Positions 37,507 to 64,000 of a stretch of DNA of 64,000 bases are shown piece after piece. Position 1 is the first letter of the stretch; every line of letters begins with the position of its first letter. Both the position numbers and the translations under genes were made by a program. Below the pieces are notes generated by a model, which worked only from the letters and a program-made list of their open reading frames with translations, was not told where the DNA came from and searched no databases. The stretch covers positions 537-64,536 of the forward strand of contig CAZAKR010000013.1 of NCBI GenBank assembly GCA_964486105.1, read 5' to 3'. Source of the DNA: an uncultured Rhodospirillaceae bacterium. GTDB lineage: Bacteria; Pseudomonadota; Alphaproteobacteria; UBA11136.

Positions 37507-37519
37507 ACCGCCCTGCCCC

Positions 37520-47579: not shown

Positions 47580-47707
47580 TTGTTCCAATTTATATGACGA
47601 TGGACACTGAAACCTAAAAAACGGCAATTGAGGTTTCAGGCCTTTCCCCGGATTAATCTCGATAAGGATGGAGTCCTGGCCGTTTACATCGAGGGCGACG
47701 GTTATGC

Positions 47708-47890: not shown

Positions 47891-47939
47891 AGTGCCGGTT
47901 AATCTCACCCCCGGAACGTTTCACAAAGCACAAAACATA

Positions 47940-49199: not shown

Positions 49200-49200
49200 A

Positions 49201-51216
49201 ATGAACCTTCCTTGCGTCAGCGTCGTCATCCCTGTCTACAACCGGGCCAAGCTTATCGGCCGGGCGCTAGAGAGCGTATTCACGCAGAGTTTCCAGGATT
49301 TTGAGGTGATCATCGTTGATGACGCTTCGACGGATGATCTTGGAACGGCGCTGAAACCCTTCGACGACCCGCGCATGCAGATCGTTACCCACGAAAAGAA
49401 CAGAGGCGCCGGGGCGGCGCGCAATACGGGCATCCGTGCATCAAGAGGCAAATACATCGCCTTTCTCGATTCCGATGATGAATGGACAAGGCGCAAGCTG
49501 GCGCGGCAGGTTGCCTATCTCGAAACGGCCCCTGATACCACGCCTCTCGCCTGCACCGGGTTTTTCATGGATCATTCTACCGACCAGAAGGTTTACGCAA
49601 CCAAGTTAGCTGAAACGACGTTTGATCTCGATATGATTTCTCAGGGCAGCCATACATGCCTCGCCACGACCCTGATGATTAGACGGTCCTGCTTCGATGA
49701 GATGAGCCTCTATGACGAAGGTTTGCCCTGTCTTGAAGTTTGGGATCTTCTCTTAAGGTTTGCCAGGCGATGGTCGATTGGCGTCATCGGCGAACCGATG
49801 GCCTGGATTCACTTTTACAAATCCCCCCCCACCGAAACCATGGGCAGGGCTATTGAACATTTCCAGGAGAATCATCGGGAATACTTGCGCACCCACAATC
49901 GACATGCGGCAACTTATCTTGAAGCCGCCATTACCAAGGAAAGGCTGGAAATATTTTACAGGAACCAGCAATTTAAGGATTCTTTAAAACTTGCTTTCTC
50001 TCTCCTCCTTAAATCCCCTTGGTTGTCCCTAGCCACCATCAAGAAAACAACTGGCGCCATTCTTCACTACATTTTATTCCGCCATAAAAAGAAAACACTT
50101 GCTACATTTGATAAAGAACCAAAAATTCTTCACGTCATTTCTTCACTTCAGACAGGAGGAGCTGAAGGGATGTTGACTTCTCTTCTCCTGCACTCCAAAG
50201 GCGGCCAAGAACATATACAGGTTGCAGTTCTTTATCCTGGGGGAGCTAACTTAGAAAAACTTTTAGAAGCGGGATATACGGTCTTAAGCCTTGGAACAAA
50301 AAGAATCATATACACGCCAATCTCTCTTCTTCGCCTGATAAGGATCATACGGCTTGAACAGCCGGATATTATTCACAGCTGGTTGTATCATGCTGATCTG
50401 ATTTCGACACTTGCCCTCTATCTATCCGGAAGACGTATAAAAACGAAATTGATCTGGGGTATCCGCTGTTCGGATATGAATCTTTCAAACTACTCCCCCT
50501 TTTTACGCTTGTCGGTTTGGCTCTGCCGCCTGCTGTCCACTCTTCCCGATATGGTTACGGCTAATTCCCGCGCGGGAAGAGATTTTCACATTGAAATGGG
50601 CTATAAGCCAAAGCGGATTGAATTATTTGAAAACAGCTACGACCTCTCACTATTCACTCGCTCCCAAAAAGCCAGAAAAAAGATACGGCAACAACTGGAC
50701 ATTCCGGAAGATGCCATTGTTGTCATCGCAGTTGGCCGCAACGATCCCATGAAATCCTGGCCGACCTTTATAGAGGCCTTCTCGGCTAGCGGGGAGATTT
50801 TTGGGATTGTTGCCGGATCTGGGACTCTTGACCTTCCAGACCTGCCCAACCTTAGGCGCCTGGGAAGACGCAATGACGTGCCCGATCTTTTAGCCGCCAG
50901 CGATATTTTTGTTTCTTCTTCAGCCTTTGGCGAGGGGTTTTCCAATGCCATTGCGGAGGCAATGGCCTCCGGCCTACCCGTTATTGCCACGGATGTGGGA
51001 GATTCGGCCTATATTGTTCAAGAGGGGGGAATTATTGTTTCACCTATGAATCCTGGTCAAATCAGTTCTGCTATCTGCAGCCTAGCTGGCGATCCAGACC
51101 TAAGAATGTCGATGGGACAGTATGGAAGAGAACGTATTGCCACTCGATACAATATAGAGGAAGCATCAAGAAAATTATTAAAGTTTTATGATCGATCCAA
51201 TGTCGAAGTCATCTGA
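49201..51216 (+). CDS. Bifunctional glycosyltransferase with an N-terminal GT2 (GT-A) and a C-terminal GT4 (GT-B) domain
   Basis: The N-terminus is VSVVIPVYNRAKLIGRALESVFTQSFQDFEVIIVDDASTDD...FLDSDDEW. The C-terminus is KILHVISSLQTGGAEGMLTSLL...EGFSNAIAEAMASGLPVIATDVG. Confidence 0.8.
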   Translation: MNLPCVSVVIPVYNRAKLIGRALESVFTQSFQDFEVIIVDDASTDDLGTALKPFDDPRMQIVTHEKNRGAGAARNTGIRASRGKYIAFLDSDDEWTRRKLARQVAYLETAPDTTPLACTGFFMDHSTDQKVYATKLAETTFDLDMISQGSHTCLATTLMIRRSCFDEMSLYDEGLPCLEVWDLLLRFARRWSIGVIGEPMAWIHFYKSPPTETMGRAIEHFQENHREYLRTHNRHAATYLEAAITKERLEIFYRNQQFKDSLKLAFSLLLKSPWLSLATIKKTTGAILHYILFRHKKKTLATFDKEPKILHVISSLQTGGAEGMLTSLLLHSKGGQEHIQVAVLYPGGANLEKLLEAGYTVLSLGTKRIIYTPISLLRLIRIIRLEQPDIIHSWLYHADLISTLALYLSGRRIKTKLIWGIRCSDMNLSNYSPFLRLSVWLCRLLSTLPDMVTANSRAGRDFHIEMGYKPKRIELFENSYDLSLFTRSQKARKKIRQQLDIPEDAIVVIAVGRNDPMKSWPTFIEAFSASGEIFGIVAGSGTLDLPDLPNLRRLGRRNDVPDLLAASDIFVSSSAFGEGFSNAIAEAMASGLPVIATDVGDSAYIVQEGGIIVSPMNPGQISSAICSLAGDPDLRMSMGQYGRERIATRYNIEEASRKLLKFYDRSNVEVI

Positions 51217-51262
51217 CTGATGTTCTGCCTATTCAATAGCGAGAGCCAGATCAAGCGAGTAA

Positions 51263-52222
51263 ATGAAAGCCACACAAAACATATCAAGATTTGCCTTAAT
51301 TGGCGCAGCCGGCTACATAGCACCCCGGCATATGCAGGCGATCAAGGAAGTTGGTGGCGACCTTGTCGCTGCGTTTGATCCGGCTGACAGTGTTGGCGTG
51401 ATCGACAGCCATTTTCCCGAGGCCCGCTTTTTCACCGAGTTTGAACGCTTCGACCGTCATATAGACAAGTTGCACCGTGCTGGTGCCAAGGTCGATTATG
51501 TGGCGATTTGTTCACCCAACTATCTGCACGACGCGCATGTGCGTTTTGCGTTGCGTTCAGATGCAGATGCCATATGTGAAAAGCCCCTGGTTCTTAACCC
51601 CTGGAATCTTGATGGCTTGGCCGAAATGGAAAAGCACACTGGCAAGCGGGTCTACACCATTTTGCAATTGCGCCTGCATCCCGCGATTATCGCGCTGAAG
51701 GAACGCATCGACAGCCAGCCCGCGGATAAGGTGTTTGATGTGGATTTGACTTACATCACGTCGCGCGGGCGTTGGTACCACGTTTCGTGGAAAGGGGATG
51801 AAGATAAGTCCGGCGGCATTGCCGGTAACATCGGCGTTCATTTTTACGACATGTTGGAATTTGTCTTTGGTAACCTTAAGGCCAATCATGTTCACCTGCA
51901 CACACCAACCCATGCTGCGGGGTACCTGGAGTATGAACGCGCCCGGGTACGGTGGTTCCTGTCCGTTGATCGCAACGATTTGCCCGAACACACAGCCGAA
52001 GGCCAAACCACCTACCGCTCCATCACCGTGGATGGGTCCGAGGTTGAGTTCTCAGGTGGGTTCACAGATTTACATACATTGAGCTATCAAGATGTGCTGA
52101 ACGGCGGTGGCTTCGGTATTGATGACGTTCGTCCAAGCATCGAGGTTGTTTCCTACATTCGCACCGCTGATTTAGAACCCAACAAAGGCGATATGCACCC
52201 GTTCGCCAAAGATAGGAGCTGA
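51263..52222 (+). CDS. wbpB: UDP-N-acetylglucosaminuronate 3-dehydrogenase-like oxidoreductase (Gfo/Idh/MocA family, WbpB homologue)
   Basis: FALIGAAGYIAPRHMQAIKEVGG...ICSPNYLHDAHVRFALRSDADAICEKPLV...YTILQLRLHPAIIALKERI closely parallels Pseudomonas WbpB. Confidence 0.8.
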   Translation: MKATQNISRFALIGAAGYIAPRHMQAIKEVGGDLVAAFDPADSVGVIDSHFPEARFFTEFERFDRHIDKLHRAGAKVDYVAICSPNYLHDAHVRFALRSDADAICEKPLVLNPWNLDGLAEMEKHTGKRVYTILQLRLHPAIIALKERIDSQPADKVFDVDLTYITSRGRWYHVSWKGDEDKSGGIAGNIGVHFYDMLEFVFGNLKANHVHLHTPTHAAGYLEYERARVRWFLSVDRNDLPEHTAEGQTTYRSITVDGSEVEFSGGFTDLHTLSYQDVLNGGGFGIDDVRPSIEVVSYIRTADLEPNKGDMHPFAKDRS

Positions 52223-52225
52223 TCC

Positions 52226-52810
52226 ATGGGCAACGCGCCGGATATGGAAGGCGTTTCAATTCATGAAAGCGCCTATGTGGATTTGCCATGTACCATCGGT
52301 GTGGGAACGAAAATCTGGCATTTTTCCCATGTCTTGCCCAACACCTCAATCGGTGAGGGCTGTGTGTTGGGTCAAAACGTCGTGGTGGGGCCAGATGTCA
52401 CTATTGGTAATAAAGTCAAAATTCAAAACAATGTCAGCATCTATAAAGGCGTAACACTGGAAGACGGTGTGTTCTGTGGACCGTCGTGCGTCTTCACAAA
52501 TGTGAATAATCCGCGTTCCGAGATTAACCGCCAAGATGAGTTTCGCCCGACGCTGGTCAAGCGCGGCAGCACGATCGGTGCCAATGCGACCATCGTTTGC
52601 GGTCATACATTGGGTGAATATTGTTTTATTGCCGCCGGCGCCGTGGTGGGCGGGGATGTTCCAGATTTTGCTTTGATGGCTGGAGTTCCCGCTAAGCGTA
52701 TCGGTTGGATAAGCCGCGCCGGTGTAAAACTGGGTGATGATCTGACCTGTTCCCAAGATGGCAGCAAATACAGCCTTAATAGTGACGGCTTGCTGGAGGC
52801 TGCGGACTGA
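52226..52810 (+). CDS. wbpD: Sugar N-acetyltransferase with a left-handed beta-helix (hexapeptide repeat), WbpD-like
   Basis: Hexapeptide repeats are visible ([48 protein letters not shown]). Confidence 0.8.
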
Positions 52811-52812
52811 TC

Positions 52813-53955
52813 ATGCCCATCCCCTTTATCGATTTACAAGCCCAGCGCCGCGCTATGGGGTCTGCCCTAGATGAGGCCATGGCGCGCGTGCTGGACCGTG
52901 GTGACTTTATCCAGGGCCAAGAGGTCCGTGAATTTGAAGCCGCACTGGCTACCTTCACCGGCGCGGGCCATGTGGTGAGTTGCGCCAGCGGCACCGATGC
53001 GCTGACCTTGGTGGGTATGGCTGAAAACATTGGCCCGGGCGATGCGGTGTTCGTGCCGGCGTTTACGTTTGTCGCCACCGCAGAGGCATTCACTGTCTTG
53101 GGTGCAACGCCGTACTTCGTAGACGTGCTTCCTGATACGTTCAATATGAACCCTGAAAGCCTTCAGGATGGCATTGCCGACGCCAAAGCTCAGGGGCTCA
53201 ACCCGCGTATGGTCGTGGCGGTGGACTTGTTCGGACAACCCGCCGATTACAATCGCCTTGCGCCCATTGCCCATGAAAACAATATGATTTTGGTCGCCGA
53301 TGCCGCTCAGGCGCTGGGTGGGTCTTTGGGTGGAAAACGCGTCGGTACATTGGCCGATTACACCACCACCAGCTTTTTCCCCGCCAAGCCCTTGGGCTGT
53401 TACGGCGATGGCGGTGCGGTGCTGACGGACGTTGCCGATAAGGCTGCATTGATCAAATCTTTGACCCAACACGGTAAGGGTAGTGAAAAATACGATAATT
53501 TGCGCGTTGGCCTCAACAGCCGCCTAGACACCTTGCAGGCGGCTATTTTGATCGAGAAGCTGAAAATTTATGAAGGCGAGTTGCGGGCCCGAAATGATGT
53601 GGCCCAACGCTATTCAGGCGCGCTTAGCGAGATTGCCCAGACCCCGTATCTGTTGGCCGACACACAGTCGTGTTGGGCGCAATACACTTTGAAGTTTGAA
53701 CACCGTGAAACAGCACAAGAAAACCTCAAAAATGCGGGCGTTCCCAGTGCCGTCTATTACCCCATGCCGTTAAGTCAGCAGGGTGGTTATACACAATGCC
53801 CTGTGGTGCCAGGCGGCGTTTTAGTCTCAGAACGCCTGTCCGGTCAGGTTTTGAGTTTACCGATGCACCCGTATTTGGATACTGATACACAAAGCACCGT
53901 CATCAACGCCTTAAAGGCCGCTGTTGGCGCCCCTCACCACCGCCTTAAATCTTGA
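52813..53955 (+). CDS. wbpE: DegT/DnrJ/EryC1/StrS-family PLP-dependent sugar aminotransferase (WbpE-like)
   Basis: The 380-aa protein shows the fold-type I aminotransferase pattern (DAAQALG, SFFPAKPLGCYGDGG). Confidence 0.9.
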   Translation: MPIPFIDLQAQRRAMGSALDEAMARVLDRGDFIQGQEVREFEAALATFTGAGHVVSCASGTDALTLVGMAENIGPGDAVFVPAFTFVATAEAFTVLGATPYFVDVLPDTFNMNPESLQDGIADAKAQGLNPRMVVAVDLFGQPADYNRLAPIAHENNMILVADAAQALGGSLGGKRVGTLADYTTTSFFPAKPLGCYGDGGAVLTDVADKAALIKSLTQHGKGSEKYDNLRVGLNSRLDTLQAAILIEKLKIYEGELRARNDVAQRYSGALSEIAQTPYLLADTQSCWAQYTLKFEHRETAQENLKNAGVPSAVYYPMPLSQQGGYTQCPVVPGGVLVSERLSGQVLSLPMHPYLDTDTQSTVINALKAAVGAPHHRLKS

Positions 53956-53962
53956 GAGTGAT

Positions 53963-54958
53963 ATGGATATTCGTGGGAAGAAACTTGTTCTAATTGGTGG
54001 TGCCGGGCTTATCGGTTCCCACACAGCGGACTTGCTGGTTCAGGAAGACGTTGGTGAAATCGTTATTTATGACAATTTCGTGCGTGGGCGAGAAGAAAAC
54101 CTTGCCAATGCGCTACGCGATCCGCGTGTTCGGATTTTTGATATTGGCGGGGATATTTGCCAGACAGACATTTTGAACGAAGCGTTGAAGAATGCCGATG
54201 GTGTGTTTCACTTCGCAGCTTTGTGGCTGTTGCAGTGCCATGACTTCCCACGTTCCGCATTTGACGTAAACGTGACGGGTGCCTTCAACGTCATGGAAGC
54301 TTGCCATCAGAACGATGTGGGGCGTCTGGTTTATTCCTCGTCAGCGTCAGTTTATGGCGATGCTGTTGAAGAGCCGATGAACGAAGATCATCCCTTCAAT
54401 AATAAAAATTTCTACGGCGCGACCAAGATAGCCGGTGAGGCCATGTTGCGCGCTTTTCATTTTCGTTATGGCCTGCCTTTCGTTGGGCTGCGTTATATGA
54501 ATGTTTACGGACCGCGTCAGGATTATCAGGGCGCTTACATTGCGGTCATTATGAAGATGCTCGACGCCATTGATCAGGGGCAGGGGCCGACGGTCATGGG
54601 GGACGGTAGCGAGGCATTTGACTTTGTTGCCGTCGAAGATTGCGGTCTTGCAAATGTGTGCGCCATGAAAGCAGGCAGTGTTGATCGTTTCTATAACGTT
54701 GGCACTGGCAAGCGAACCTCGTTAAAGGAATTGGCAGAAATGCTTGTCGACCTGACCGGCACGGATCAAGAAATTCAATACGCGCCCCGCAGTCAAGCAA
54801 CGTTGGTGCGCAACCGTATTGGCTGCCCAAAACGCGCCAAAGATGAAATCGCCTTTGACGCAGAAATCGAATTGCGTGAGGGCCTGCAAAAGCTCATCGA
54901 TTGGCGGAAAAGCCATATTGAAGAAGTCGAAGCGCGGCGCAGTAAAGCGCGCATTTAG
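53963..54958 (+). CDS. NAD-dependent epimerase/dehydratase (SDR) acting on sugar nucleotides
   Basis: The start is the ATG at about 53963 (MDIRGKKLVLIGGAGLIGSH). The YGATK catalytic motif is present. Confidence 0.85.
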   Translation: MDIRGKKLVLIGGAGLIGSHTADLLVQEDVGEIVIYDNFVRGREENLANALRDPRVRIFDIGGDICQTDILNEALKNADGVFHFAALWLLQCHDFPRSAFDVNVTGAFNVMEACHQNDVGRLVYSSSASVYGDAVEEPMNEDHPFNNKNFYGATKIAGEAMLRAFHFRYGLPFVGLRYMNVYGPRQDYQGAYIAVIMKMLDAIDQGQGPTVMGDGSEAFDFVAVEDCGLANVCAMKAGSVDRFYNVGTGKRTSLKELAEMLVDLTGTDQEIQYAPRSQATLVRNRIGCPKRAKDEIAFDAEIELREGLQKLIDWRKSHIEEVEARRSKARI

Positions 54959-54972
54959 AGGGCAATAGCTAA

Positions 54973-56853
54973 ATGTGTGGCATAGCAGGCTTCATCAACA
55001 CAAACAGCGCGCCGGCATCGGCAGTTGTGCTGAAAGACATGATGGACGTTATTGCCCATCGTGGTCCCGATGGAGAAGGGCAATGGGTTGAAGGTGAGGT
55101 TGCTCTTGGGCATCGCCGTCTCGCCATTATTGACCTTACGGCCGCTGCTCATCAGCCTATGCAAACGGCCGATGGTCGCTATGTCATCACGTATAATGGT
55201 GAAATTTATAATTTCAGGGAATTACGCCTAGAGCTGGAAGCCAAGGGATATCGTTTCCACTCTGATACGGATAGTGAGGTCGTTTTAAATGCCTTTGCGG
55301 AATGGGGAGTTCAGTGTCTTCTGCGTTTCAACGGCATGTTTGCCTTTGCTATATGGGATGCGAAACAACGTCAATTGACGTTGGCGCGGGACCGCTATGG
55401 TGTGAAGCCATTATATTGGAGTGTTAAAGGCAACACCTGTCTATTTGGTTCCGAAGTGAAATCCATTCTTTGCCATCCAGCCGTCAAGGCGGAGATGGAC
55501 CTGCCTGGGTTGATGGAATACTGCACATTTCAAAACTTTTTTACGGATAAGACCTTATTCAAGGACATTCATTTGCTGCCTGCGGGGTGTTATGTCGTTC
55601 TACGCAATGGCGTGAATAGCAAACCTGAAATAACGCGCTACTGGGATTATCAATTTGAGGAACCGGAGACCTCAAAGACTGAGGATGAATATGCTGAAGA
55701 GTTGGATTATCTGTTTCGACAGGCTGTAACCCGGCAACTTGTTAGCGATGTCGACGTTGGAGGATATCTGTCGGGTGGTATGGATTCAGGCTCGATCGCG
55801 GCGATTGCGTCACAGCAAATTCCCAATATGCGGACTTTCACCTGCGGTTTTGACTTGAGTTCGGCATCGGGAATAGAGATGTCGTTTGATGAGCGCTCCG
55901 CAGCCGAGCAGATGTCGAACCAATACAAAACAGAACATTACGAAATGGTTCTCAAAGCCGGTGATATGGAACGCTGTATGCCTGCCATTGCCCATCACCT
56001 TGAAGAGCCTCGGGTTGGGCAAAGCTATCCTAACTTTTACATTTCAGGGCTGGCGGGGAAATTTAACAAAGTTGTGTTGGCGGGGACTGGTGGCGATGAA
56101 CTGTTCGGTGGGTATCCGTGGCGCTATTATCGCGCCGTGGTGAACGATGATTTCGAACACTACACAGATAAGTATTACAGTTATTGGCAGCGTCTAGTCC
56201 CCAATGAGCTGGCCAGCAACTTTTTTGCGCCGATCTGGAATGATGTCAAAGACGTATCGACACGCGACATTTTTCAAAATGTGTTTTTAAGCCACGCCGA
56301 GAATCTGACCCGCCCAGAAGATTATGTGAACCACTCCCTTTATTTTGAGGCCAAGACATTTCTGCAAGGGCTCTTCATCGTTGAAGATAAGCTTGGTATG
56401 GCGCACTCGTTGGAAACACGCTTTCCCTTCATGGACAATGATCTGGTAGATTTTGCGATGAGGCTGCCGACGCGCTTTAAACTCGGCAATCTTGGCAATG
56501 TTGTGAAGTTGGATGAAAACGAGCCGGGCGCGAAAACATCTCGTTATTTTCAGAAAACCAATGATGGGAAGTTACTGTTGCGCAAAGTCATGCAACGTCA
56601 TATTCCCGATGAGGTCGTGCAGCGTGAAAAACAGGGTTTTTCTGCTCCTGACGCCAGTTGGTTCCGTGGAGAAAGTATCGACTTTGTCCGTCGCACCTTT
56701 CTGGAAAATGAAGCCCCTCTATATCAGTTCCTTGATCGGACAACAGTGACCGAGCTCATCGAAGATCACCTTCAGGGACGAGATAACCGTCGCTTGCTGA
56801 TCTGGTCATTTTTGAGCGTTAATGAGTGGTGTAAGGAGTTCCTTGATGCATAA
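54973..56853 (+). CDS. Asparagine synthetase B-like glutamine amidotransferase (WbpS-like uronic-acid amidotransferase candidate)
   Basis: MCGIAGF (Ntn Cys2) and the PP-loop SGGMDSGSIAA are present. Confidence 0.9.
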   Translation: MCGIAGFINTNSAPASAVVLKDMMDVIAHRGPDGEGQWVEGEVALGHRRLAIIDLTAAAHQPMQTADGRYVITYNGEIYNFRELRLELEAKGYRFHSDTDSEVVLNAFAEWGVQCLLRFNGMFAFAIWDAKQRQLTLARDRYGVKPLYWSVKGNTCLFGSEVKSILCHPAVKAEMDLPGLMEYCTFQNFFTDKTLFKDIHLLPAGCYVVLRNGVNSKPEITRYWDYQFEEPETSKTEDEYAEELDYLFRQAVTRQLVSDVDVGGYLSGGMDSGSIAAIASQQIPNMRTFTCGFDLSSASGIEMSFDERSAAEQMSNQYKTEHYEMVLKAGDMERCMPAIAHHLEEPRVGQSYPNFYISGLAGKFNKVVLAGTGGDELFGGYPWRYYRAVVNDDFEHYTDKYYSYWQRLVPNELASNFFAPIWNDVKDVSTRDIFQNVFLSHAENLTRPEDYVNHSLYFEAKTFLQGLFIVEDKLGMAHSLETRFPFMDNDLVDFAMRLPTRFKLGNLGNVVKLDENEPGAKTSRYFQKTNDGKLLLRKVMQRHIPDEVVQREKQGFSAPDASWFRGESIDFVRRTFLENEAPLYQFLDRTTVTELIEDHLQGRDNRRLLIWSFLSVNEWCKEFLDA

Positions 56854-56913
56854 ACATGCTCGTTGGACAACACTGACAAAAGTTGGTTTCGCGACTAGGG
56901 GGAAAAGCATCAG

Positions 56914-57750
56914 ATGATCCTGCGAGCCATCCATCCAGCAGCTACCGTCCGTGCTATTGGCGATTTTCTGCGTGTCATGGTCCGCCATCGTGAACTCATA
57001 GCTGCCATGGCGAAACGCGATATCGGGAGCCGTTTCGCGGGCCAGGTGCTTGGCAGCCTGTGGGCCGTTCTGCATCCTTTGGTGTTGATCTGCGTTTATA
57101 TCGTCCTGTTCGCCTTTGTCTTCAATATTCGTATGCCCGAAGGCATGGAATTTGAGCGGTCCTACACGACCTATCTATTGAGCGGGCTGGTGCCCTGGAT
57201 CGTGTTCCAGGAAATCATCATACGCTCTAGCACGGCGGTCACGGAAAATGACAATTTGGTTAAACAGGTAGTCTTTCCCATAGAGGTTCTACCGGTTAAA
57301 TCGGTGTTGTCGTCGATGGTGGTTCCTATCGTTGCTTTCACGGTGCTGTTGTTGCAGGGGGCAGTGGAATCCGGCCTGCCTGCAATTGCCGTCCTGCTAC
57401 CCCTTTTATTGCTTCTGCAATTGATCGCCATGGTTGGAATAGCCATGCTCCTCGCCGCAGTCGGTGTTTATCTGCGCGATCTCAAGGATATTGCCCAGGT
57501 AGGCTGCTTTATTACCATATACGCCACTCCAATCTTTTACCTGCCTGATTGGGTACCCTCAGGCTTGAAGCCAATAACCTATCTCAACCCGTTCAGCTAT
57601 ATGGTGTGGTGCTATCGCGACCTTGTCTATTATGGACGGTTTGAACATCCTTGGGCATGGCTGGTTTTTACATTCTTTGCCCTTCTGTCGTTTGCGATAG
57701 GTTATCGGGTGTTCCGCCGCCTTAAACCGGGGTTCGGGAGCGTGCTGTGA
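56914..57750 (+). CDS. wzm: ABC-2 type polysaccharide export permease (Wzm)
   Basis: The 278-aa protein has 6 TM helices and the ABC-2 pattern. Confidence 0.85.
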   Translation: MILRAIHPAATVRAIGDFLRVMVRHRELIAAMAKRDIGSRFAGQVLGSLWAVLHPLVLICVYIVLFAFVFNIRMPEGMEFERSYTTYLLSGLVPWIVFQEIIIRSSTAVTENDNLVKQVVFPIEVLPVKSVLSSMVVPIVAFTVLLLQGAVESGLPAIAVLLPLLLLLQLIAMVGIAMLLAAVGVYLRDLKDIAQVGCFITIYATPIFYLPDWVPSGLKPITYLNPFSYMVWCYRDLVYYGRFEHPWAWLVFTFFALLSFAIGYRVFRRLKPGFGSVL

Positions 57751-59060
57751 CAGATCTTGCTATTCAGGTTCGCGGCCTCTCAAAGATGTTCAAAGTCTAC
57801 AGTCAACCGCGTGATTTAGCGCTGGAGCTGGTGACGGGCCGCAAGCGACACGAGGAACATTGGGCCTTGCGTGATATCGACCTCGACATTCGCCGTGGCG
57901 AGGTCTTTGGCATCGTTGGGCGCAATGGCTCTGGAAAAAGCACGCTTCTGCGTATTCTGGCGGGGACTCTAGACAAGACTGGCGGGGAGGCAGACGTCAC
58001 GGGGAGCCTGTCCGCGATTCTGGAATTGGGAACAGGTTTCCACCCGGAATACAGCGGCCGAGAAAATATCATAATGGGTGGCATGTGCCTTGGAATGAGC
58101 AGGGCCGAGACCGAAGACAGGATCGAAGAAATTATCGACTTCAGCGAGTTGAGGGACGTCATTGATCGACCGTTCAAGACCTATTCCAGTGGCATGCAGG
58201 CCCGCCTGACCTTTAGCACTTCGGTAAGTGTCGAACCCGACATCCTCATTATTGACGAAGCACTGGCGGCAGGGGATGGAGCGTTCGTCGCGAAATGCAT
58301 GCAGCGGATCAAGGAAATTTGCGACAGCGGCAGTACTGTTCTCCTAGTCTCACATGGCCTTGAAACTATTTCTCGTTTCTGCAGTCGCGCGACTTGGCTC
58401 CACAAGGGGGAGATCGTGTGTACGGGTGGCACCGAGGAGATTGTGGACAGATATAAGGCATTCCTTGATGATGAAGAGGAACAAGAACTTGCTCGTCAAA
58501 ACAGTCGTTTGACAGCCTCCCCCGACCGTCAGCGACAGGAAGCTAAACATCAAGGAATCCCTGGACGGGGAGAAGGCGGCATTACTGTACTCGATGCAGC
58601 CATCTATGACGGCGATGGAAATCAGCGAGATGCATTTTTGTTCGGGGAAGAAATGACAATAAGAGTCCGCGTAAGCTCCGCGCAGGATTTTGAACAACTC
58701 TCTGTTGGAATCGCCTTTCATCGTTCAGACGGCGTGGCAATGATGACGTCTAATAACACTTTCGCATTATCGGAAGATTACCAGCACACAAACACACCAA
58801 TCAGTCTGAAAGCGGAATCTGAAGCTGTGCTGGCCTTGCATATCCCTTCTTTTCCACTTGGCTTAGGGCGTTATAAAATTTTATTCAATATATCCAAAAC
58901 GGTTCATATTGTTTCTCAAATGGAAGCGATTTATTACAATGACCGTCTTCTCGAAATAAGTATCCGCTCTCCAAGCCCAACATATTATTTTAGACACGCG
59001 GCTGAAACTCCGACTTCCTGGTCGGTTGAACATGATCAAACCCACAAGAAAATCACTTGA
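57747..59060 (+). CDS. wzt: Polysaccharide ABC transporter ATP-binding protein Wzt with a C-terminal glycan-binding domain
   Basis: Walker A GRNGSGKST, the signature YSSGMQARL and Walker B ILIIDE are present. A ~190-aa C-terminal beta-rich extension follows, typical of Wzt proteins that recognise a modified O-PS terminus. Confidence 0.9.
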   Translation: MTDLAIQVRGLSKMFKVYSQPRDLALELVTGRKRHEEHWALRDIDLDIRRGEVFGIVGRNGSGKSTLLRILAGTLDKTGGEADVTGSLSAILELGTGFHPEYSGRENIIMGGMCLGMSRAETEDRIEEIIDFSELRDVIDRPFKTYSSGMQARLTFSTSVSVEPDILIIDEALAAGDGAFVAKCMQRIKEICDSGSTVLLVSHGLETISRFCSRATWLHKGEIVCTGGTEEIVDRYKAFLDDEEEQELARQNSRLTASPDRQRQEAKHQGIPGRGEGGITVLDAAIYDGDGNQRDAFLFGEEMTIRVRVSSAQDFEQLSVGIAFHRSDGVAMMTSNNTFALSEDYQHTNTPISLKAESEAVLALHIPSFPLGLGRYKILFNISKTVHIVSQMEAIYYNDRLLEISIRSPSPTYYFRHAAETPTSWSVEHDQTHKKIT

Positions 59061-59102
59061 TCTCAAGATGAAGAATATCCAATTAACGGACGTTGCCAGC
59101 CA

Positions 59103-59978
59103 ATGAGTCGCCGCATCATTATTATGAGGTTTCTTGGCTTGTTCCTCGGATGTTTGCGCTTGACTGTTTGGGGGCGTGGCAAGTCCCTTAATGCGCGCCA
59201 AAAGCAGTTGGTAGATGAAGTCCAGCTTTGGACATCACGTTTCTTTGCGCCTGCCCTGATGAAACCATTGGATGCTCTGGTCGCTGACCAGCTTTTGTCT
59301 AATCACAATTGGAATGGTCCTGTACTTGATGCTGGCTGCGGCGCCTGCCGGTTCGGTTATAGCATCTTCAAACCATGGCTAGACAAAGTAACCATAGATG
59401 GCCTCGATCTCGAGATCGAAATGGAAAGTAATATAGACAGTGGCCATCGAGATATGCTCAGAAATTTTTACAAAATGTCCTTCGAAGATACAGGGCTTCG
59501 GGACAATACGTATGGATTGATATTTAGCAACAACGCTCTACAAGCAGCACCCGTATTAGAAGATGCCATCAAGGAGTTCCATCGGATTATGGTCAAAGAT
59601 GGCCTGCTGATTTTTAATGTGACAACGCCGGCATATCAACGGCGGCTGCGGCCTGATTGGGAGATGTTGCCACGTTATTTCACCGTCAATGAGATCAAAG
59701 ATACGGTTGTTTCCTGCGGGTTTGAGGCGCTTGAGATCACGCCATATAACAGTGGTTTCTTTGCTAAAATGGACTTCCGCTATTTCATGCCCGCCTATAA
59801 GGATTTATGGGCATATGAAGTAAATTCAAGCATTCAGCCTCATGGAGCCCTATATCAGTTGTTGTTTGGGTGGTTCCGAAAGTTTCTTTCCTGCTTCTCA
59901 ACAGCGTATGTCCGGGCACTCCGAGAACAAGGTGCAGGCGATAGTGGCAAGCTGTATGTTGTCGCAAGAAAACGATAG
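59103..59978 (+). CDS. Class I SAM-dependent methyltransferase
   Basis: The motif VLDAGCGACRFG is present. Confidence 0.65.
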   Translation: MSRRIIIMRFLGLFLGCLRLTVWGRGKSLNARQKQLVDEVQLWTSRFFAPALMKPLDALVADQLLSNHNWNGPVLDAGCGACRFGYSIFKPWLDKVTIDGLDLEIEMESNIDSGHRDMLRNFYKMSFEDTGLRDNTYGLIFSNNALQAAPVLEDAIKEFHRIMVKDGLLIFNVTTPAYQRRLRPDWEMLPRYFTVNEIKDTVVSCGFEALEITPYNSGFFAKMDFRYFMPAYKDLWAYEVNSSIQPHGALYQLLFGWFRKFLSCFSTAYVRALREQGAGDSGKLYVVARKR

Positions 59979-60031
59979 GGCCGTAGTTTATCCACGTCAT
60001 GTGCTGTATTTTATTTTTCTAGGAGGGCATC

Positions 60032-61033
60032 TTGAACGAAAATTCACCTGATAACAGTATGCCCTATCAGCTTTTTATTGACGTTGCTTACGCGTGTAAT
60101 CTGCGCTGCAAAATGTGTGACCTTTTTTCAGATGATTCGACAGCTTCATTCGCTATGCGAAATGATGGCGTTCCTCAGTTAATGGATTTCGAGGTTTTCA
60201 AGCAGATCGTTGATAAATCGCATGACATCATCACGACCTATAACACTCAGTTGCGTGGCGAGCCGTTTATCCACCCCCGATTCTGCGACATGCTGGCTTA
60301 CATACGCGAGAAAGCACCAGACGCAAAGATCTGCTTTAACACCAATGGTATGCTGTTGACGCCTGAGTTGATTGACCGCTGCCTGGAGATTGGGGTCGAT
60401 AATTTTTTCTTCTCCATTGATGCGGCTGATCCTGAAGTTTACGACATAATCCGTATCCGGTCTGATTTGGCTAGAGTCGAAAAAAACATCAAATATCTTC
60501 TGGATGCACGGGAAAACCCTTCGTTAAAGCATCGTCCCGAAGTTAATGTCTCATTCGTGTTGCAAGAGGATAACGAGCACGAAAAACATCAATTTCTGCA
60601 ACACTGGTTGGGCCGTGCAGATTCAATATGTTTTTATACCAAGATGGAGTTTGACGGTTCACGGCTGGATCGTTTTTTTGAGCCGGCTGGGCCGCGCAAG
60701 CCATGTGAATCGCTATACCACTCTATTGCGGTTCTTTCGGACGGTGCGGTTGTTCCGTGCTGTGGGGATTCAACCCCTCACGAGGTATTGGGGTATATTC
60801 AAGATGCTTCATTACGCGAGATTGCGGCCGGTGGACGGTACCAGGAAATGCGGCGTCTTCACGAAGCCGGTCAGGCCGGGGAAATATCCTTGTGCAAGGA
60901 CTGTGACACCTGGATCGCCTATGAAACAAAGCAGCTGGAACAAAAGATACGGCCCGAAGGCGCTCTGTTCAGACGGCCATGCACAATTACCCAGTCCCCA
61001 GTATCCGAAACCTGGACCTTAAAAGGGAAATAA
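60032..61033 (+). CDS. Radical SAM enzyme with a C-terminal SPASM/twitch-like Cys-rich domain
   Basis: The CxxxCxxC motif is ACNLRCKMC and the SAM motif is RGEPFIHP. C-terminal cysteines lie in PCESLYHS, VVPCCGDS and LCKDCDTW. Confidence 0.8.
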   Translation: MNENSPDNSMPYQLFIDVAYACNLRCKMCDLFSDDSTASFAMRNDGVPQLMDFEVFKQIVDKSHDIITTYNTQLRGEPFIHPRFCDMLAYIREKAPDAKICFNTNGMLLTPELIDRCLEIGVDNFFFSIDAADPEVYDIIRIRSDLARVEKNIKYLLDARENPSLKHRPEVNVSFVLQEDNEHEKHQFLQHWLGRADSICFYTKMEFDGSRLDRFFEPAGPRKPCESLYHSIAVLSDGAVVPCCGDSTPHEVLGYIQDASLREIAAGGRYQEMRRLHEAGQAGEISLCKDCDTWIAYETKQLEQKIRPEGALFRRPCTITQSPVSETWTLKGK

Positions 61034-61035
61034 AA

Positions 61036-62634
61036 GTGGACATCATCTTCTTTCAGCAGTCTCCATTACACACGGCAGTCGGATGGGGCGATGGTGGCTT
61101 GAAGCGTCTCGATGTAATGGTTGATCATTGGCGCTCGACTTCTGAAGTTATCGACACGATACAAGTGGTTGCTCTTGACGATGATTTTGAGAAGATAAAG
61201 CTTCACTTGGGAAGGCGATGCGAAGTGCTTCCGGCATCGGGAAATGATGCCCTGCCAGTGTGTGGTGACCGACTTGTCATCGTCACTGAGCCAAACTTTC
61301 ATGTGCCAGTCACGCTGTTGCGCCGGCTCAAGATATTCACAGAGAGAAATATTGGCCGAAAGGTTGTGAAGCTCAATTCACGCCATCGTGCTTCGACCGT
61401 GGGGCTTGACTGCCAAGTTTTTACCCGCGAATTGACCTCACTGCTCCGCGAAAAAGGTCGAACCGTACAGGGCGTAATGTACGGGGCATGGACGCAATCG
61501 GACCTAGTCTATGAAGAAACAATCTTTTCAACTAGTGAGGATGAAAGAGAAGCCTACAGGCAAAAGCTGGACATGACTATTTTCCCCAGCGAATTGGCGC
61601 TAGAGCCAACGACACATTGCAACCTCGCCTGCACGATGTGCACGTACCATTCGGACAAATACAAATCGCCCCGGGTCGGCTCTTATGTGCCCAAAGAAGA
61701 GTTCCGGCACATGGATGTCGAACTCTTTAAACGCCTCATCGACGAGGCAGCGGCGATGAATGTTACAAAGCTCTGCCCACAGTACCGGGGCGAGCCGTTT
61801 CTTCATCCGAGTTTTATGGAGATGCTCGAATACGCCATTTCTAAAGGCGTTACAAACATCGCCTTTCCAACCAATGGCACCTCTCTCAATGAAAAAAATG
61901 CCCGACGACTTGTCGATATGGGGCTGCATACCCTGCAATTCTCGATTGATGCCTTGTCCAAGGATGCCTACTTGGATATCCGGATAAACTCTGATTTCGA
62001 GCGGGTCCAAGAAAACCTGCGCAACATCATTGAGTATCGCGACAGCAAAGGGCTAACACACCCGGTCATCGGATTGACGTTCGTGGACTTACCCGAAAAC
62101 GTAAGCGAACGAGAAGATTACATTCGGCATTATAGTGGGCTTGTCGATTTTATCCGAACAAGTGTCGGCGTCAGTTACGCTGAACTCCATTCCGGGTTGC
62201 CGGGTGAGTATTTTGAATGTCCAGACGACTGGCGTCCGCCCTGTCGGCTCATTACCGAGCAAATTGCAGTTTCAAGCGATGGCATAGCCGGTCTGTGCCA
62301 TCCCGATTCAACAAAAAGTCACGTTATAGGCGACTTGAATAAACAGAGCCTTCAAGAGGTGTTCAACGGTCGGCGACTGCGAGATATCTGGGACGCGCAT
62401 CTGGAAAAATCATCTTCGGTTCCGCAAATTTGCGATAAGTGCCAGATTTGGAAGGCTGACATATTCCGTGACCTTCCCTCATTTGACCCCGACAATGTTT
62501 CTGTGACCGGTGGTCCCATGTGGGTTCAGTACTACAAATTAAAGCCACAACCCACCACGCCGACTGTATCCACTGGGCTGGTGTGGGAAACGGCACAAAG
62601 AATCATCAACAAGGCCAAGAGCCTAGTCTCCTAG
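61036..62634 (+). CDS. Second radical SAM/SPASM-like enzyme, a paralogue of the preceding gene with a ~200-aa N-terminal extension
   Basis: The CxxxCxxC motif is THCNLACTMC and the SAM motif is RGEPFLHP. C-terminal cysteines lie in CRLITEQ, GLCHPDS and ICDKCQIW. The probable GTG start at about 61036 has RBS AAAAGGGA; the listed ORF starts at 60979 and overlaps the upstream gene. Confidence 0.7.
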   Translation: MDIIFFQQSPLHTAVGWGDGGLKRLDVMVDHWRSTSEVIDTIQVVALDDDFEKIKLHLGRRCEVLPASGNDALPVCGDRLVIVTEPNFHVPVTLLRRLKIFTERNIGRKVVKLNSRHRASTVGLDCQVFTRELTSLLREKGRTVQGVMYGAWTQSDLVYEETIFSTSEDEREAYRQKLDMTIFPSELALEPTTHCNLACTMCTYHSDKYKSPRVGSYVPKEEFRHMDVELFKRLIDEAAAMNVTKLCPQYRGEPFLHPSFMEMLEYAISKGVTNIAFPTNGTSLNEKNARRLVDMGLHTLQFSIDALSKDAYLDIRINSDFERVQENLRNIIEYRDSKGLTHPVIGLTFVDLPENVSEREDYIRHYSGLVDFIRTSVGVSYAELHSGLPGEYFECPDDWRPPCRLITEQIAVSSDGIAGLCHPDSTKSHVIGDLNKQSLQEVFNGRRLRDIWDAHLEKSSSVPQICDKCQIWKADIFRDLPSFDPDNVSVTGGPMWVQYYKLKPQPTTPTVSTGLVWETAQRIINKAKSLVS

Positions 62635-62704
62635 GTGAACCGTGTGTTTTTACACTCGAAACCCAGGGAGAACATTTCCTTCAAGGTTTCTGCATATTTA
62701 GAGG

Positions 62705-63805
62705 ATGGGCAGCAGATTGGCTGACGGCACCCAATTTCAGATCGACACTGGTTCACCAGGCGCAGAAGAGTGGGATGATCTGGTCGCCAAATGTCCCTGG
62801 GGGTCGTTTTACCATGGCTATGACAACCTGAATATGATTAGGCACCTCTTAGGGGTGGAGCCGCGTTACCTTTTGCTGAGGGAGGGGGAACGGCTTATCG
62901 GTGGGCTGGCATGGTGCGAAAAAGAAGGCCCCGCGGGAACGGTGGCCAATGCGCTGCCTTTTTACGGTTCTTACGGTGAGGCTTTGGCGCTTCCCAACCT
63001 GCCGGACGATGCCATCATACTTCTGTACCAAACGTTCCTTGATGGTTGCCGCGACCGCGACGTGGTAGCGGCGACCATCATCACAAGCCCTTTTGCCGAA
63101 CGAGACCGTACCGAATGGCATATAGAAAGCCTTTCACCTGATATTATCGACAATCGGCTTTGCCAAATGACGTCGTTACCGGATTGTCGAGGATTGTGCC
63201 GCCCGGAGGCCGAGAAGCGGGTATTGAATGTTCTTCGTGGGTCCGCAAGGCGTGCCGTTCGCAAGGCCCGCAAGGAAGGCGTATCGGTTAGGCCAGCTGC
63301 TTCTCTTGATGAGGTTCGGATTGTTGCAAATCTTCATGCCGATAACATCGACGGAAAGGGAGGGCTGAGCAAACCCTTATCTTTCTTTAGATTCGCGTGG
63401 CAGCTTCAACAGGCTCCTACTTCACAAGCCGTTGTATTAGTCGCCGAATGGCATGGCAAAATCATCGGCGGTGTTGTGATGTTCGAGACCAATGACACTT
63501 TGGAGTATCATACGACTGGTATGGACATGGAGCACAGCAACACACGGCCCACCAATGCCATAGTTTTTGGGGCAATGGTTGACGGTTCCATCCGAGGGTT
63601 GCGCTACATAAACTTCGGCGGAACGTGGAAAACTCAAGAAGGCATCCACCGGTTCAAAGCATCGTTTGGTGCTGAAGATCGCGACTACCAATACCTGACC
63701 TGGCTTTTTGATCCCACACTTCTGCATCAAACAGCAGAACAACTGGCTGCGGATTACCCTGGCTTCTTCGTCGTTCCCTATTCTGCCTTGGACGGAACCA
63801 CTTAA
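62705..63805 (+). CDS. FemAB-like/GNAT-fold acyl- or aminoacyl-transferase (Acetyltransf_6/BioF2-like)
   Basis: The 366-aa protein has the pattern WDDLVAKCPWGSFYHGYDNL...TTGMDMEHSNTRPTNAIVFGAMV, reminiscent of FemAB-family proteins found in polysaccharide loci. Confidence 0.55.
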   Translation: MGSRLADGTQFQIDTGSPGAEEWDDLVAKCPWGSFYHGYDNLNMIRHLLGVEPRYLLLREGERLIGGLAWCEKEGPAGTVANALPFYGSYGEALALPNLPDDAIILLYQTFLDGCRDRDVVAATIITSPFAERDRTEWHIESLSPDIIDNRLCQMTSLPDCRGLCRPEAEKRVLNVLRGSARRAVRKARKEGVSVRPAASLDEVRIVANLHADNIDGKGGLSKPLSFFRFAWQLQQAPTSQAVVLVAEWHGKIIGGVVMFETNDTLEYHTTGMDMEHSNTRPTNAIVFGAMVDGSIRGLRYINFGGTWKTQEGIHRFKASFGAEDRDYQYLTWLFDPTLLHQTAEQLAADYPGFFVVPYSALDGTT

Positions 63806-63938
63806 GCCATGATGTTCCTTCCGCGATTGATGGGATTTAGTCGGTGGCATTGGATTGGATTCCCCGCTAGAAAGGGGGGGAATGCTTCTCTTTATTTGTG
63901 TCGTCGGAAAACCCGTAAATGACATGTAAGGTAACGCC

Positions 63939-64000
63939 ATGGGAAGGTTAATTTCCCGTATTCGGAAATTACTAACGGGCAATCTCGAACAACGTTTGCA
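63939..64000 (+). CDS. 5' end of a further ORF (MGRLISRIRKLLTGNLEQRL...) running off the window
   Basis: The ATG is preceded by GGTAACGCC. The ORF is only partial. Confidence 0.25.
   Translation, partial: MGRLISRIRKLLTGNLEQRL

Follow-up and report, generated by a model that had tools for sequence, protein, structure and literature searches.

BtrN, the 2-deoxy-scyllo-inosamine dehydrogenase of the butirosin pathway (PDB 4M7T/4M7S), joins a radical SAM core to a twitch domain, which is a truncated SPASM domain with a single set of cluster-ligating cysteines; four cysteines hold its auxiliary cluster, and the enzyme carries out a two-electron alcohol oxidation (PMC9012708). Its substrate is small and amino-carbohydrate-like, not a peptide. 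BlsE (cytosylglucuronate decarboxylase) and DesII (TDP-4-amino-4,6-dideoxyglucose lyase) are likewise radical SAM enzymes of sugars or nucleotide sugars with a C-terminal auxiliary domain, and they perform other chemistry. To our knowledge, every twitch radical SAM enzyme of sugars that has been characterised (BtrN, BlsE, DesII, SpeY and similar) belongs to an antibiotic pathway, and we know of none assigned to LPS, capsule or protein-glycan biosynthesis. The pair of radical SAM proteins described here, rSAM1 and rSAM2, lies within a polysaccharide locus and probably serves glycan or nucleotide-sugar tailoring through BtrN-like radical chemistry.

The locus and its conservation

The window, the whole 64,000-nucleotide stretch of DNA that was analysed, carries the following features.

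47892 to 51216, plus strand: locus head, a Wzy_C/O-antigen-ligase-like membrane protein (PF04932, E=3.5e-17) and a GT2+GT4 fusion glycosyltransferase of 671 aa (GT2 plus GT1/GT4 domains)
51263 to 54958, plus strand: nucleotide-sugar genes assigned by Pfam families (WbpB-like GFO/IDH/MocA oxidoreductase, WbpD-like hexapeptide acetyltransferase, WbpE-like DegT aminotransferase, SDR epimerase)
54973 to 56853, plus strand: AsnB-type glutamine amidotransferase, 626 aa (TIGR01536)
56914 to 59060, plus strand: wzm (56914 to 57750; ABC2_membrane, PF01061) and wzt (57747 to 59060; ABC_tran, PF00005, plus Wzt_C)
59103 to 59978, plus strand: class I SAM-dependent methyltransferase (MT), 291 aa (Methyltransf_11, E=3.7e-8)
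60032 to 61033, plus strand: rSAM1, BtrN-like twitch radical SAM enzyme, 333 aa (PF04055, E=3e-20; PF13186, E=3e-11)
60095 to 60118, plus strand: CX3CX2C of rSAM1 (C22, C26, C29), predicted SAM-binding [4Fe-4S] site, invariant or nearly so in alignments A1 and A4
60704 to 60904, plus strand: predicted twitch ligands of rSAM1 (C225, C243, C288, C291), spaced C-x17-C-x44-C-x2-C and invariant in 60 family members
61036 to 62634, plus strand: rSAM2, three-domain paralogue of rSAM1, 532 aa (PF04055, E=7e-19; PF13186, E=3e-8)
61036 to 61575, plus strand: N-terminal domain of rSAM2, about 180 aa, cytidylyltransferase/nucleotidyltransferase/GT-A fold, sequence signature absent
61618 to 61641, plus strand: CX3CX2C of rSAM2 (C195, C199, C202), invariant in alignments A5 and A7
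62242 to 62442, plus strand: predicted twitch ligands of rSAM2 (C403, C421, C466, C469), with the x17/x44/x2 spacing of rSAM1
62705 to 63805, plus strand: GNAT-fold, FemAB-like acyl/aminoacyl transferase, 366 aa (PF13480, E=1.4e-9, 38.7 bits)

The four tightly spaced plus-strand genes of the original prediction are real. They encode a methyltransferase, the radical SAM paralogues rSAM1 and rSAM2 and a GNAT/FemAB-like transferase, and they lie downstream of AsnB-wzm-wzt(Wzt_C) in one tightly spaced operon of 13 genes with intergenic gaps of -4 to 70 nt. rSAM1 starts at a TTG codon with an AGGAGG ribosome binding site 5 nt upstream, and rSAM2 is translationally coupled to it across a 2-nt gap. 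We place the start of rSAM2 at the GTG at 61036 because its orthologues P0019 and P0020 (56% and 46% identity, with the start and architecture of rSAM2) begin at the same MDII residues; the longer reading frame from the ATG at 60979 is unsupported.

The upstream context that had been proposed for the pair also stands. The AsnB-like protein scores 454 bits against TIGR01536 (cut-off 267), and Wzt has a C-terminal carbohydrate-binding domain (Wzt_C, PF14524, E=1.3e-13, 51.6 bits; cut-off 30.4). On the model of P. aeruginosa WbpB/E/D, we read the genes at 51263 to 54958 as a putative 2,3-diacetamido-2,3-dideoxy-uronic acid pathway. The idea of a tail module, by contrast, arose only because the window stops there: eleven further locus genes follow over about 12 kb beyond it, among them glycosyltransferases, a second DegT aminotransferase (DegT2), a third radical SAM gene, a WbmS-like gene and two formyltransferases. 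Beyond 47 kb in the window, GC content is down to about 0.50, and the flanking region ends at an opposite-strand PEP carboxylase gene.

The order AsnB-wzm-wzt(Wzt_C)-rSAM-rSAM-GNAT recurs in two independently diverged loci (L004 and L005) at 46-65% identity, with wzm-wzt directly 5' of the radical SAM genes in both, which argues for a pair that is part of the polysaccharide locus and against a RiPP or cofactor cluster. An orthologue of the methyltransferase sits immediately 5' of rSAM1 in L004 (345 bits) and is absent from L005, and the GNAT/FemAB-like protein has orthologues in both (430 bits in L004, 238 bits in L005). This last protein matches PF02388 in its C-terminal part only (model positions 307-380; E=2.6e-7, 30.3 bits against a cut-off of 24), scores 47.9 bits against TIGR03019, far under the cut-off of 260, and reaches E=0.24 at best against aminoacyl-tRNA-dependent peptide synthases in the PDB.

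The close subfamily of the window pair is rare, and the wider family comprises about 13,800 clusters at E<=1e-30. Its members occur in glycan loci of bacteria and an archaeon, often among GT, NeuB, DegT, AsnB and SDR genes, so radical SAM genes in such a locus are not the oddity that they were first taken for. The family is heterogeneous, with some members beside sulfatase or kinase genes. Tandem fusions of 2-4 radical SAM repeats occur, as do fusions to Methyltransf_23, FkbM, Methyltransf_24, sulfotransferase, cytidylyltransferase and D-2-hydroxyacid dehydrogenase domains, and methyltransferase genes flank family members in the window and in L004, L010, L125 and L153. AsnB is the most recurrent neighbour (5/5 loci with radical SAM genes versus 17/47 WbmS loci, and 8/46 unbiased family loci) and is non-exclusive, while FemAB-like genes are also found elsewhere without radical SAM genes; the supposed tie of these two genes to the pair is thus not specific. 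The WbmS/formyltransferase pair is also widespread without radical SAM genes. DegT2 lies in the same operon as the pair, and one family locus (L089) has the order WbpE-rSAM-DegT2-AsnB. Since DegT2 homologues are as common without radical SAM genes (25/47 WbmS-type loci) as with them (3/5), and a DegT gene is present in only 5 of 46 unbiased family loci, coupling of a dehydrogenase to a transaminase is not general.

Resemblance of the pair to BtrN

The two radical SAM proteins are paralogues far above chance (E=3e-43, with 32% of residues identical across 295 aa), and both exceed the PF04055 cut-off of 29.5 bits (rSAM1 73.5 bits, rSAM2 69.0 bits). The motif pairs CNLRCKMC/CNLACTMC and RGEPFIHP/RGEPFLHP that first drew attention to them are present as described; the shared NTNG block is not, as rSAM2 reads PTNG. 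Their C-termini had been called SPASM or twitch, and the twitch half of that label holds: only four cysteines are conserved in 60 family members, consistent with one cluster and not with the seven cysteines and two clusters of SPASM, and no CX5CX3C follows the CX2C despite the PF13186 match. The C-termini are thus twitch domains on sequence grounds, each with a single predicted auxiliary cluster. In rSAM2 the twitch cysteines are invariant in 13 long-form relatives, the third radical SAM protein of each locus included.

Among the analogues offered by the original prediction, BtrN proved the best: in profile comparisons it is well ahead of every other solved structure, and in Foldseek it ranks first. 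A family profile finds BtrN in the PDB at E=4.9e-35 (124 bits), covering both core and C-terminal domain, with the runner-up at 1.4e-18; a narrow profile of the window pair and its orthologues only gives 4.6e-15 for BtrN and 6e-8 for the runner-up. The AF2 models have pLDDT values of 91.3 (rSAM1) and 84.1 (rSAM2), and the best Foldseek matches of rSAM1 are BtrN (1.7e-12) and BlsE (1.9e-12). The four family twitch cysteines align one-to-one with those of BtrN (chain positions 169/187/232/235 of 4m7s), the C-x17-C-x44-C-x2-C spacing is identical, and an acidic motif follows the second cysteine in both.

No curated NCBIfam radical SAM family reaches its whole-protein cut-off for either protein. 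The best scores against cut-offs are 94/400 bits for TIGR04311, 94/380 for TIGR04317, 74/170 for NF033640 (N_Twi_rSAM), 69/250 for TIGR04321 (spiro-SPASM), 35/400 for TIGR04466 (BlsE) and 32/450 for TIGR04426 (DesII).

Candidate reactions and substrates

The reading we favour, tentatively and at a little under even chances, is that rSAM1 and rSAM2 are cytoplasmic, BtrN-like twitch enzymes that tailor a nucleotide-activated amino-uronic sugar, most plausibly by turning an alcohol into a ketone, for an ABC-dependent O-polysaccharide of an uncultured marine Rhodospirillaceae-like bacterium. We infer the amino-uronic type of the sugar from gene content only; that the reaction is specifically an alcohol-to-ketone dehydrogenation is a plausible but less secure part of the proposal. 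In an amino-uronic acid or uronamide carried on a nucleotide, the 5'-deoxyadenosyl radical would take hydrogen from a carbinol carbon of the ring, and the degenerate NTP-transferase-like domain of rSAM2 may help to hold the nucleotide handle. The substrate radical would then give one electron to the auxiliary cluster and yield a keto-sugar, a BtrN-type two-electron oxidation. This ketone could be taken up downstream in the locus, first by DegT2, the second aminotransferase, and then for formyl, aminoacyl or methyl decoration. Because natural tandem fusions in the family suggest it, rSAM1 and rSAM2 may form a heteromer or take consecutive intermediates as their substrates. This reading gives no reason for three radical SAM genes per locus.

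Radical SAM families switch chemistry easily, and the sugar-acting relatives BlsE (a decarboxylase) and DesII (a lyase) have fold scores similar to that of BtrN. It is also possible, if less likely than the oxidation, that the pair works on the same nucleotide-activated amino-uronic substrates by redox-neutral or reductive chemistry: NeoN-like epimerisation at an unactivated carbon, BlsE-like C5 decarboxylation of a uronic acid, or DesII- or AprD4-like deamination or dehydration. The substrate of BlsE is a uronic acid, the sugar class that the window locus implies. The sequence matches of BlsE and DesII nevertheless span the radical SAM core only, not the C-terminal domain, and by profile BtrN is a better match than either by 20 orders of magnitude; the part that such a reading gives to C244 is speculation. 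Alternatively, the pair might act on a sugar substituent and not the ring, an N-acyl, hydroxyacyl or aminoacyl group that the FemAB-like transferase would set and the MT would methylate afterwards, to give an unusual decorated cap for the Wzt C-terminal domain. The family's fusions to class I and FkbM methyltransferases and to D-2-hydroxyacid dehydrogenase, the neighbouring methyltransferase genes, the GNAT/FemAB-like gene after the pair in three loci and the presence of Wzt_C would all suit this. We nonetheless consider it unlikely, as L005 lacks the MT, other family loci lack a FemAB-like gene, no evidence points to a side-chain substrate, and BtrN-like relatives of known function work on ring carbons.

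By far the least probable reading makes the pair a chance neighbour of the polysaccharide genes that matures peptides or proteins (RiPP, anSME-like) or a metallocofactor. Pfam does label the C-terminus SPASM, the best NCBIfam matches (TIGR04311 and TIGR04317) are maturases, SuiB, SkfB, anSME and CteB are among the structural neighbours, and one distant family member adjoins a sulfatase (L120). Those NCBIfam matches, far below their cut-offs, cover the N-terminal half only, however, and four conserved cysteines stand against the seven of SPASM maturases. We found no PqqD/RRE domain, and the locus is without a protease, a sulfatase or a tungsten/molybdenum oxidoreductase. The module gaps of 2-70 nt leave no room for a conserved precursor; the sole small intergenic reading frame (63809-63922, after the GNAT gene) is not conserved in L004 or L005, and in L004 the next gene begins 2 nt past the GNAT gene, with no space for one. 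The conserved synteny with wzm/wzt argues in the same direction.

Wider meaning and comparison with known systems

Glycan gene clusters of very distant lineages commonly hold members of a BtrN-like family, and in a limited literature search we found no paper that links BtrN-like enzymes to LPS, capsule or protein-glycan loci. It is tempting to speculate, with low confidence, that this family (at least 13,000 clusters, often in 2-4 copies or tandem fusions, some joined to a cytidylyltransferase, methyltransferase or sulfotransferase) forms a major group of glycan-tailoring enzymes that has gone unrecognised in bacteria and archaea. Here, the two or three paralogues would, one after another, functionalise C-H bonds of a nucleotide-linked amino-uronamide by radical chemistry and produce a sugar beyond the reach of conventional NAD-dependent enzymes. 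As the non-reducing cap that the Wzt domain reads, this sugar would let radical chemistry gate chain termination and export. A specific role of the pair in making a terminal cap recognised by Wzt is possible; if the product is the chain cap, radical chemistry would be tied to the control of O-antigen export. The window operon offers a compact, syntenically conserved and concrete test case. Its reaction, once worked out, would bring into the nucleotide-sugar toolkit an enzyme class that is new to it, and would aid genome-based prediction of surface-glycan structures, uncultured marine bacteria and archaea included.

With the ABC-dependent O-polysaccharide loci of the E. coli O8/O9a type and the 2,3-diacetamido-uronic acid loci of the Bordetella wbm type, the window locus shares wzm, wzt with Wzt_C and a bifunctional glycosyltransferase, as well as WbpB/D/E-like genes, AsnB, a WbmS-like deacetylase with formyltransferase, and extra DegT genes. 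No radical SAM gene could be confirmed in the described Bordetella wbm locus from the accounts consulted, which leave WbmJ and WbmK undefined. We found no WbdD-type kinase/methyltransferase terminator in the window locus; a small class I MT adjoins wzt, with neither a kinase nor a coiled-coil domain detected.

The architecture of rSAM2 (NTP-transferase fold, radical SAM core, Cys-rich C-terminus) is that of spiro-SPASM (TIGR04321) and other cytidylyltransferase-rSAM-SPASM fusions. Scores against TIGR04321, however, are 64-69 bits (cut-off 250), and the matches cover the radical SAM half only. Whereas the relatives P0228, P0258 and P0202 carry a genuine CTP_transf_3 domain, the N-terminal domain of rSAM2 has no recognisable sequence signature left: it has no Pfam match and no nucleotide-binding or catalytic signature, and hhalign gives a probability of 0.5% against the CTP_transf_3-type N-termini of relatives.

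BtrN itself shares only about 15-20% identity with the window proteins. It is a 250-aa protein without an N-terminal domain, whereas rSAM2 has its 180-aa NTP-transferase-fold domain, and both window proteins, unlike BtrN, bear C-terminal beta extensions of about 35-60 aa. The settings differ as well. BtrN acts on a free aminocyclitol and is encoded in an aminoglycoside cluster; the window pair has no 2-deoxystreptamine pathway genes around it, and its genes, two or three per locus, belong to a wzm/wzt operon for O-polysaccharide.

A co-directional operon inside a polysaccharide locus

The four co-directional genes of the original prediction were all recovered on the + strand, and their Pfam matches are given below. 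The proposed paralogy of the two radical SAM proteins is borne out by 32% identity across 295 residues (E=3e-43).

Genes of the radical SAM module (Pfam)
59103-59978, + strand: class I methyltransferase
60032-61033, + strand: rSAM1, Radical_SAM plus SPASM
61036 (GTG start)-62634, + strand: rSAM2, Radical_SAM plus SPASM
62705-63805, + strand: GNAT/FemAB-like protein, Acetyltransf_6, with a partial FemAB match

The rSAM1 start is a TTG at 60032 with AGGAGG 5 bases 5' of it, and the rSAM2 start is a GTG at 61036, 2 bases past the rSAM1 stop, with the same first residues in its orthologues. Public gene calls differ, placing rSAM1 at 60032 or 60059 (333 or 324 aa) and rSAM2 at 61036 or 60979 (532 or 551 aa); the position of the ribosome binding site and the N-termini of orthologues favour 60032 and 61036. 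The 13 genes from 47892 to 63805 run in the same direction with spacings of -4 to 70 nt, and thus form a single operon. Upstream of the module, the expected wzt does carry a Wzt_C carbohydrate-binding domain, and the AsnB-like amidotransferase scores above the equivalog cut-off. Between the GNAT/FemAB-like gene and the glycosyltransferase that follows it, a gap of 133 nt holds a 37-codon ORF (63809-63922, + strand). This ORF is probably spurious, since the related locus L004, with 2 nt before its next gene, has no counterpart.

The exact proteins of the window also occur on ~80-kb metagenome contigs, where the operon runs past the window end, for a total of roughly 28 kb. Further on it encodes a glycosyltransferase (GT1), the second DegT aminotransferase of the locus (DegT2), one more GT1, the third radical SAM protein (625 aa), a deacetylase resembling WbmS, a pair of formyltransferases, another SDR and two proteins without a known family, before unrelated genes resume. 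The four-gene module had been described as the tail of the locus; because the operon extends so far, it is the middle. The third radical SAM/twitch gene (L001:17973-19850, 625 aa) lies ~8 kb downstream of the window end, is 26% identical to the rSAM2 core and has an N-terminus that weakly matches NTP_transf_3. In the population variant L002 (17973-19822) it is called as two ORFs of 374 and 241 aa, a sign that the gene may be frameshifted or a pseudogene in some strains.

The locus starts at ~47.9 kb with a Wzy_C/ligase-like gene that follows a PEP carboxylase gene, and this start coincides with a fall in GC to about 0.50 (~0.55-0.62 over window 1-47000, ~0.48-0.53 over the polysaccharide locus at 47000-64000). 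GC skew switches sign near 52 kb, and 2 proteins make up the AsnB cluster, compared with 6-10 for flanking housekeeping proteins. The GC shift and the small AsnB cluster fit a horizontally exchanged, strain-variable O-antigen island. The housekeeping proteins encoded in the window share 90% identity or more with those of MAGs labelled Rhodospirillaceae bacterium. On the upstream side, the 1047-aa ORF at 43808-46951 (- strand) has a PEP carboxylase match that is weak for its length (84 bits, residues 168-855), and perhaps encodes a PEPC that is atypical or divergent. A glycolate oxidase-like GlcD/GlcE/GlcF operon (36115-40258, - strand; FAD_binding_4, FAD-oxidase_C, CCG/4Fe-4S) and a PQQ-dependent alcohol dehydrogenase (29030-30682, + strand) bear no relation to the radical SAM finding.

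Twitch domains and kinship with BtrN

The original prediction placed SPASM- or twitch-type domains at both C-termini, and of these the twitch assignment holds. In alignments of 13, 60 and 50 relatives, CX3CX2C is accompanied by exactly four more invariant cysteines, and rSAM1 and rSAM2 lack the CX5CX3C of true SPASM domains. With only four extra cysteines and no CX5CX3C, these are one-cluster twitch domains, despite the SPASM HMM match. Both proteins score far below every cut-off of the curated NCBIfam models.

Auxiliary cysteines conserved in the alignments
rSAM1: C225, C243, C288, C291
rSAM2: C403, C421, C466, C469

A 60-member family profile matches BtrN, the radical SAM dehydrogenase of the butirosin pathway, at E=4.9e-35 over the core and C-terminal domain, with the next structure at 1.4e-18; a narrow profile of the window pair and close orthologues only still ranks BtrN top (4.6e-15 vs 6e-8). 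In BtrN, a twitch enzyme, four Cys ligate the auxiliary cluster; its reaction turns a secondary alcohol group of 2-deoxy-scyllo-inosamine into a ketone (PMC9012708). The four auxiliary cysteines of our proteins align with these four at identical spacing (C-x17-C-x44-C-x2-C), and an AlphaFold model of rSAM1 (pLDDT 91.3) has BtrN and the sugar-acting BlsE as its top Foldseek matches. rSAM1 and rSAM2 are putative twitch-type, sugar-acting radical SAM enzymes, homologues of BtrN and not orthologues. Cluster look-ups of relatives returned generic names only.

The paralogues differ beside one auxiliary ligand. rSAM1 has C243-C244-G-D (window 60738-60764), with a second Cys whose conservation across the family reaches 90% or more; rSAM2 and its orthologues replace this Cys with His (C421-H-P-D, window 62296-62310), and BtrN has Phe-Glu-Asp at the matching position. 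C244 may be a catalytic residue that tells the two paralogues apart.

The extra N-terminal domain of rSAM2 resembles in fold IspD enzymes, CMP-NeuAc synthetase and GT-A glycosyltransferases, and sequence methods gave it no match. In several other members of the family, the equivalent position is occupied by a genuine CTP_transf_3 domain; homology by sequence to these domains was rejected (hhalign probability 0.5%), leaving a link of fold only. We infer that the domain may be a degenerate nucleotide- or nucleotide-sugar-binding module.

Conservation of the module and its wider family

Few proteins belong to the close subfamily, with three reaching at least 50% identity to rSAM1 and three reaching at least 46% to rSAM2. 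We found no relative of rSAM1-type proteins among 185,579 species-representative genomes, and none in a metagenome scan with rSAM1 motifs. Two independent loci, L004 (65% identity to rSAM1, 56% to rSAM2) and L005 (46% to rSAM2), keep the arrangement AsnB-wzm-wzt(Wzt_C), a larger radical SAM gene, (methyltransferase), rSAM1, rSAM2 and the GNAT/FemAB-like gene, the last separated from rSAM2 by a GT1 gene in L005. Co-conservation with polysaccharide genes, whose absence would have refuted the original prediction, is therefore seen in both, and the association is real. GT1 and carbamoyltransferase genes lie nearby in both loci, and WbmS, formyltransferase and DegT genes in L004. The larger radical SAM gene, directly 3' of wzt, is not orthologous to the third radical SAM of the window locus.

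An exhaustive profile search recovered 13,792 clusters of the wider family at E<=1e-30, and sampled neighbourhoods are often glycan loci, with NeuB, CMP-transferase, UDP-sugar dehydrogenase, DegT and STT3 genes around one member (L009) and a Wzx flippase, GT4 genes, AsnB and methyltransferases around another (L010). One to three family members occur in 7 of 80 WbmS-type loci from named genomes, whose hosts include a Methanoregula archaeon, Planctomycetia, Nitrospirota and Desulfobacteraceae. The archaeal locus (L066; uncultured Methanoregula sp. MAG, OY781161.1, ~4.2-20.7 kb) holds AsnB, DegT, SDR, WbmS and formyltransferase genes together with two genes for Wzt-like ATPases and three radical SAM genes of the family, one of them ~830 aa; with the same gene set in an archaeon, the toolkit spans the divide between bacteria and archaea.

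An unbiased set of 46 metagenomic loci of at least 8 kb, chosen by the radical SAM motif alone, had at least one glycan marker in 17 by an insensitive test, and a Pfam recheck of eight sampled "negative" loci showed three to be glycan loci. The family is heterogeneous, as other loci of the set adjoin a sulfatase or STAND kinase. Among neighbours of the family, AsnB recurs most consistently, well above expectation from its genomic frequency. It is present in 8/46 loci of the unbiased set, and in WbmS loci in 5/5 with a family radical SAM gene vs 17/47 without (p=0.01, uncorrected, 18 tests).

AsnB beside a family radical SAM gene
Window 54973-56853
L010, L021, L047, L055, L066, L067, L089
L093, L116, L123, L126, L130, L138, L151, L162

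Fusion partners in the family include methyltransferases, sulfotransferases, a cytidylyltransferase, D-2-hydroxyacid dehydrogenase and 2-4 tandem rSAM-twitch copies. Multidomain relatives from the exhaustive search (P0143, P0145 and P0146, 1431-1927 aa; P0144, P0147 and P0149, 726-795 aa) comprise 2-4 tandem rSAM-twitch units, or fusions to sulfotransferase plus TPR, Methyltransf_24 or D-2-hydroxyacid dehydrogenase. The tandem copies within one chain parallel the pair rSAM1 and rSAM2, whose genes are translationally coupled.

The WbmS-like deacetylase and formyltransferase were rejected as part of the same module as the radical SAM genes, the pair being found alone in P. fluorescens and Azospirillum. 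As a module of two genes they are widespread, with 289 relatives in species genomes, and they probably exchange N-acetyl for N-formyl on an amino sugar; the P. fluorescens pair adjoins pilus genes and an IS66 fragment.

WbmS and formyltransferase module without a radical SAM gene
L006: 10001-11652
L007: 10001-11671
L008: 10001-11715

Possible chemistry and comparison with BtrN

Alongside the established cluster-binding motifs, BtrN relationship, NTP-transferase fold, operon and synteny, we consider it quite probable that rSAM1 and rSAM2 carry out a BtrN-like radical tailoring of glycan precursors. Dehydrogenation specifically is a more tentative proposal. The enzymes would be cytoplasmic and would act on the nucleotide-activated sugars of the pathway, which by gene content (WbpB/D/E-like plus AsnB, assigned by analogy) are probably 2,3-diacetamido-2,3-dideoxy-uronic acids or the amides of these. 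In the proposed reaction, a hydrogen would be taken from a ring C-H and an electron would then pass to the auxiliary cluster, giving a keto-sugar that could supply DegT2 and the formyl, aminoacyl and methyl transferases. DegT2 is equally common in related loci without a radical SAM gene, and was rejected as an obligate partner; this frequency, and the rarity of DegT genes near distant family members, count against a general coupling of dehydrogenase and transaminase.

Redox-neutral chemistry, by an epimerase, a BlsE-like decarboxylase or a DesII-like lyase, is a serious rival to dehydrogenation, as is modification of a side chain. That the pair matures a peptide or a cofactor is very unlikely: we found neither a conserved precursor ORF in the module nor an RRE, just four Cys are conserved, and the scores against curated families fall below threshold. 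We rejected the maturase reading.

No paper in the literature searched describes BtrN-like or SPASM/twitch enzymes in the biosynthesis of LPS or capsules. The idea that the Bordetella wbm locus holds such genes, with WbmJ and WbmK as "Fe-S oxidoreductases", found no confirmation in the papers searched and was dropped; one paper puts wbmK among epimerases/amidotransferase. The radical SAM module is real and conserved, is not categorically new, and offers a good starting point for experiments on its reaction. Compared with BtrN, the window system differs in its context, its substrate class, its added domains and its two to three copies per locus.
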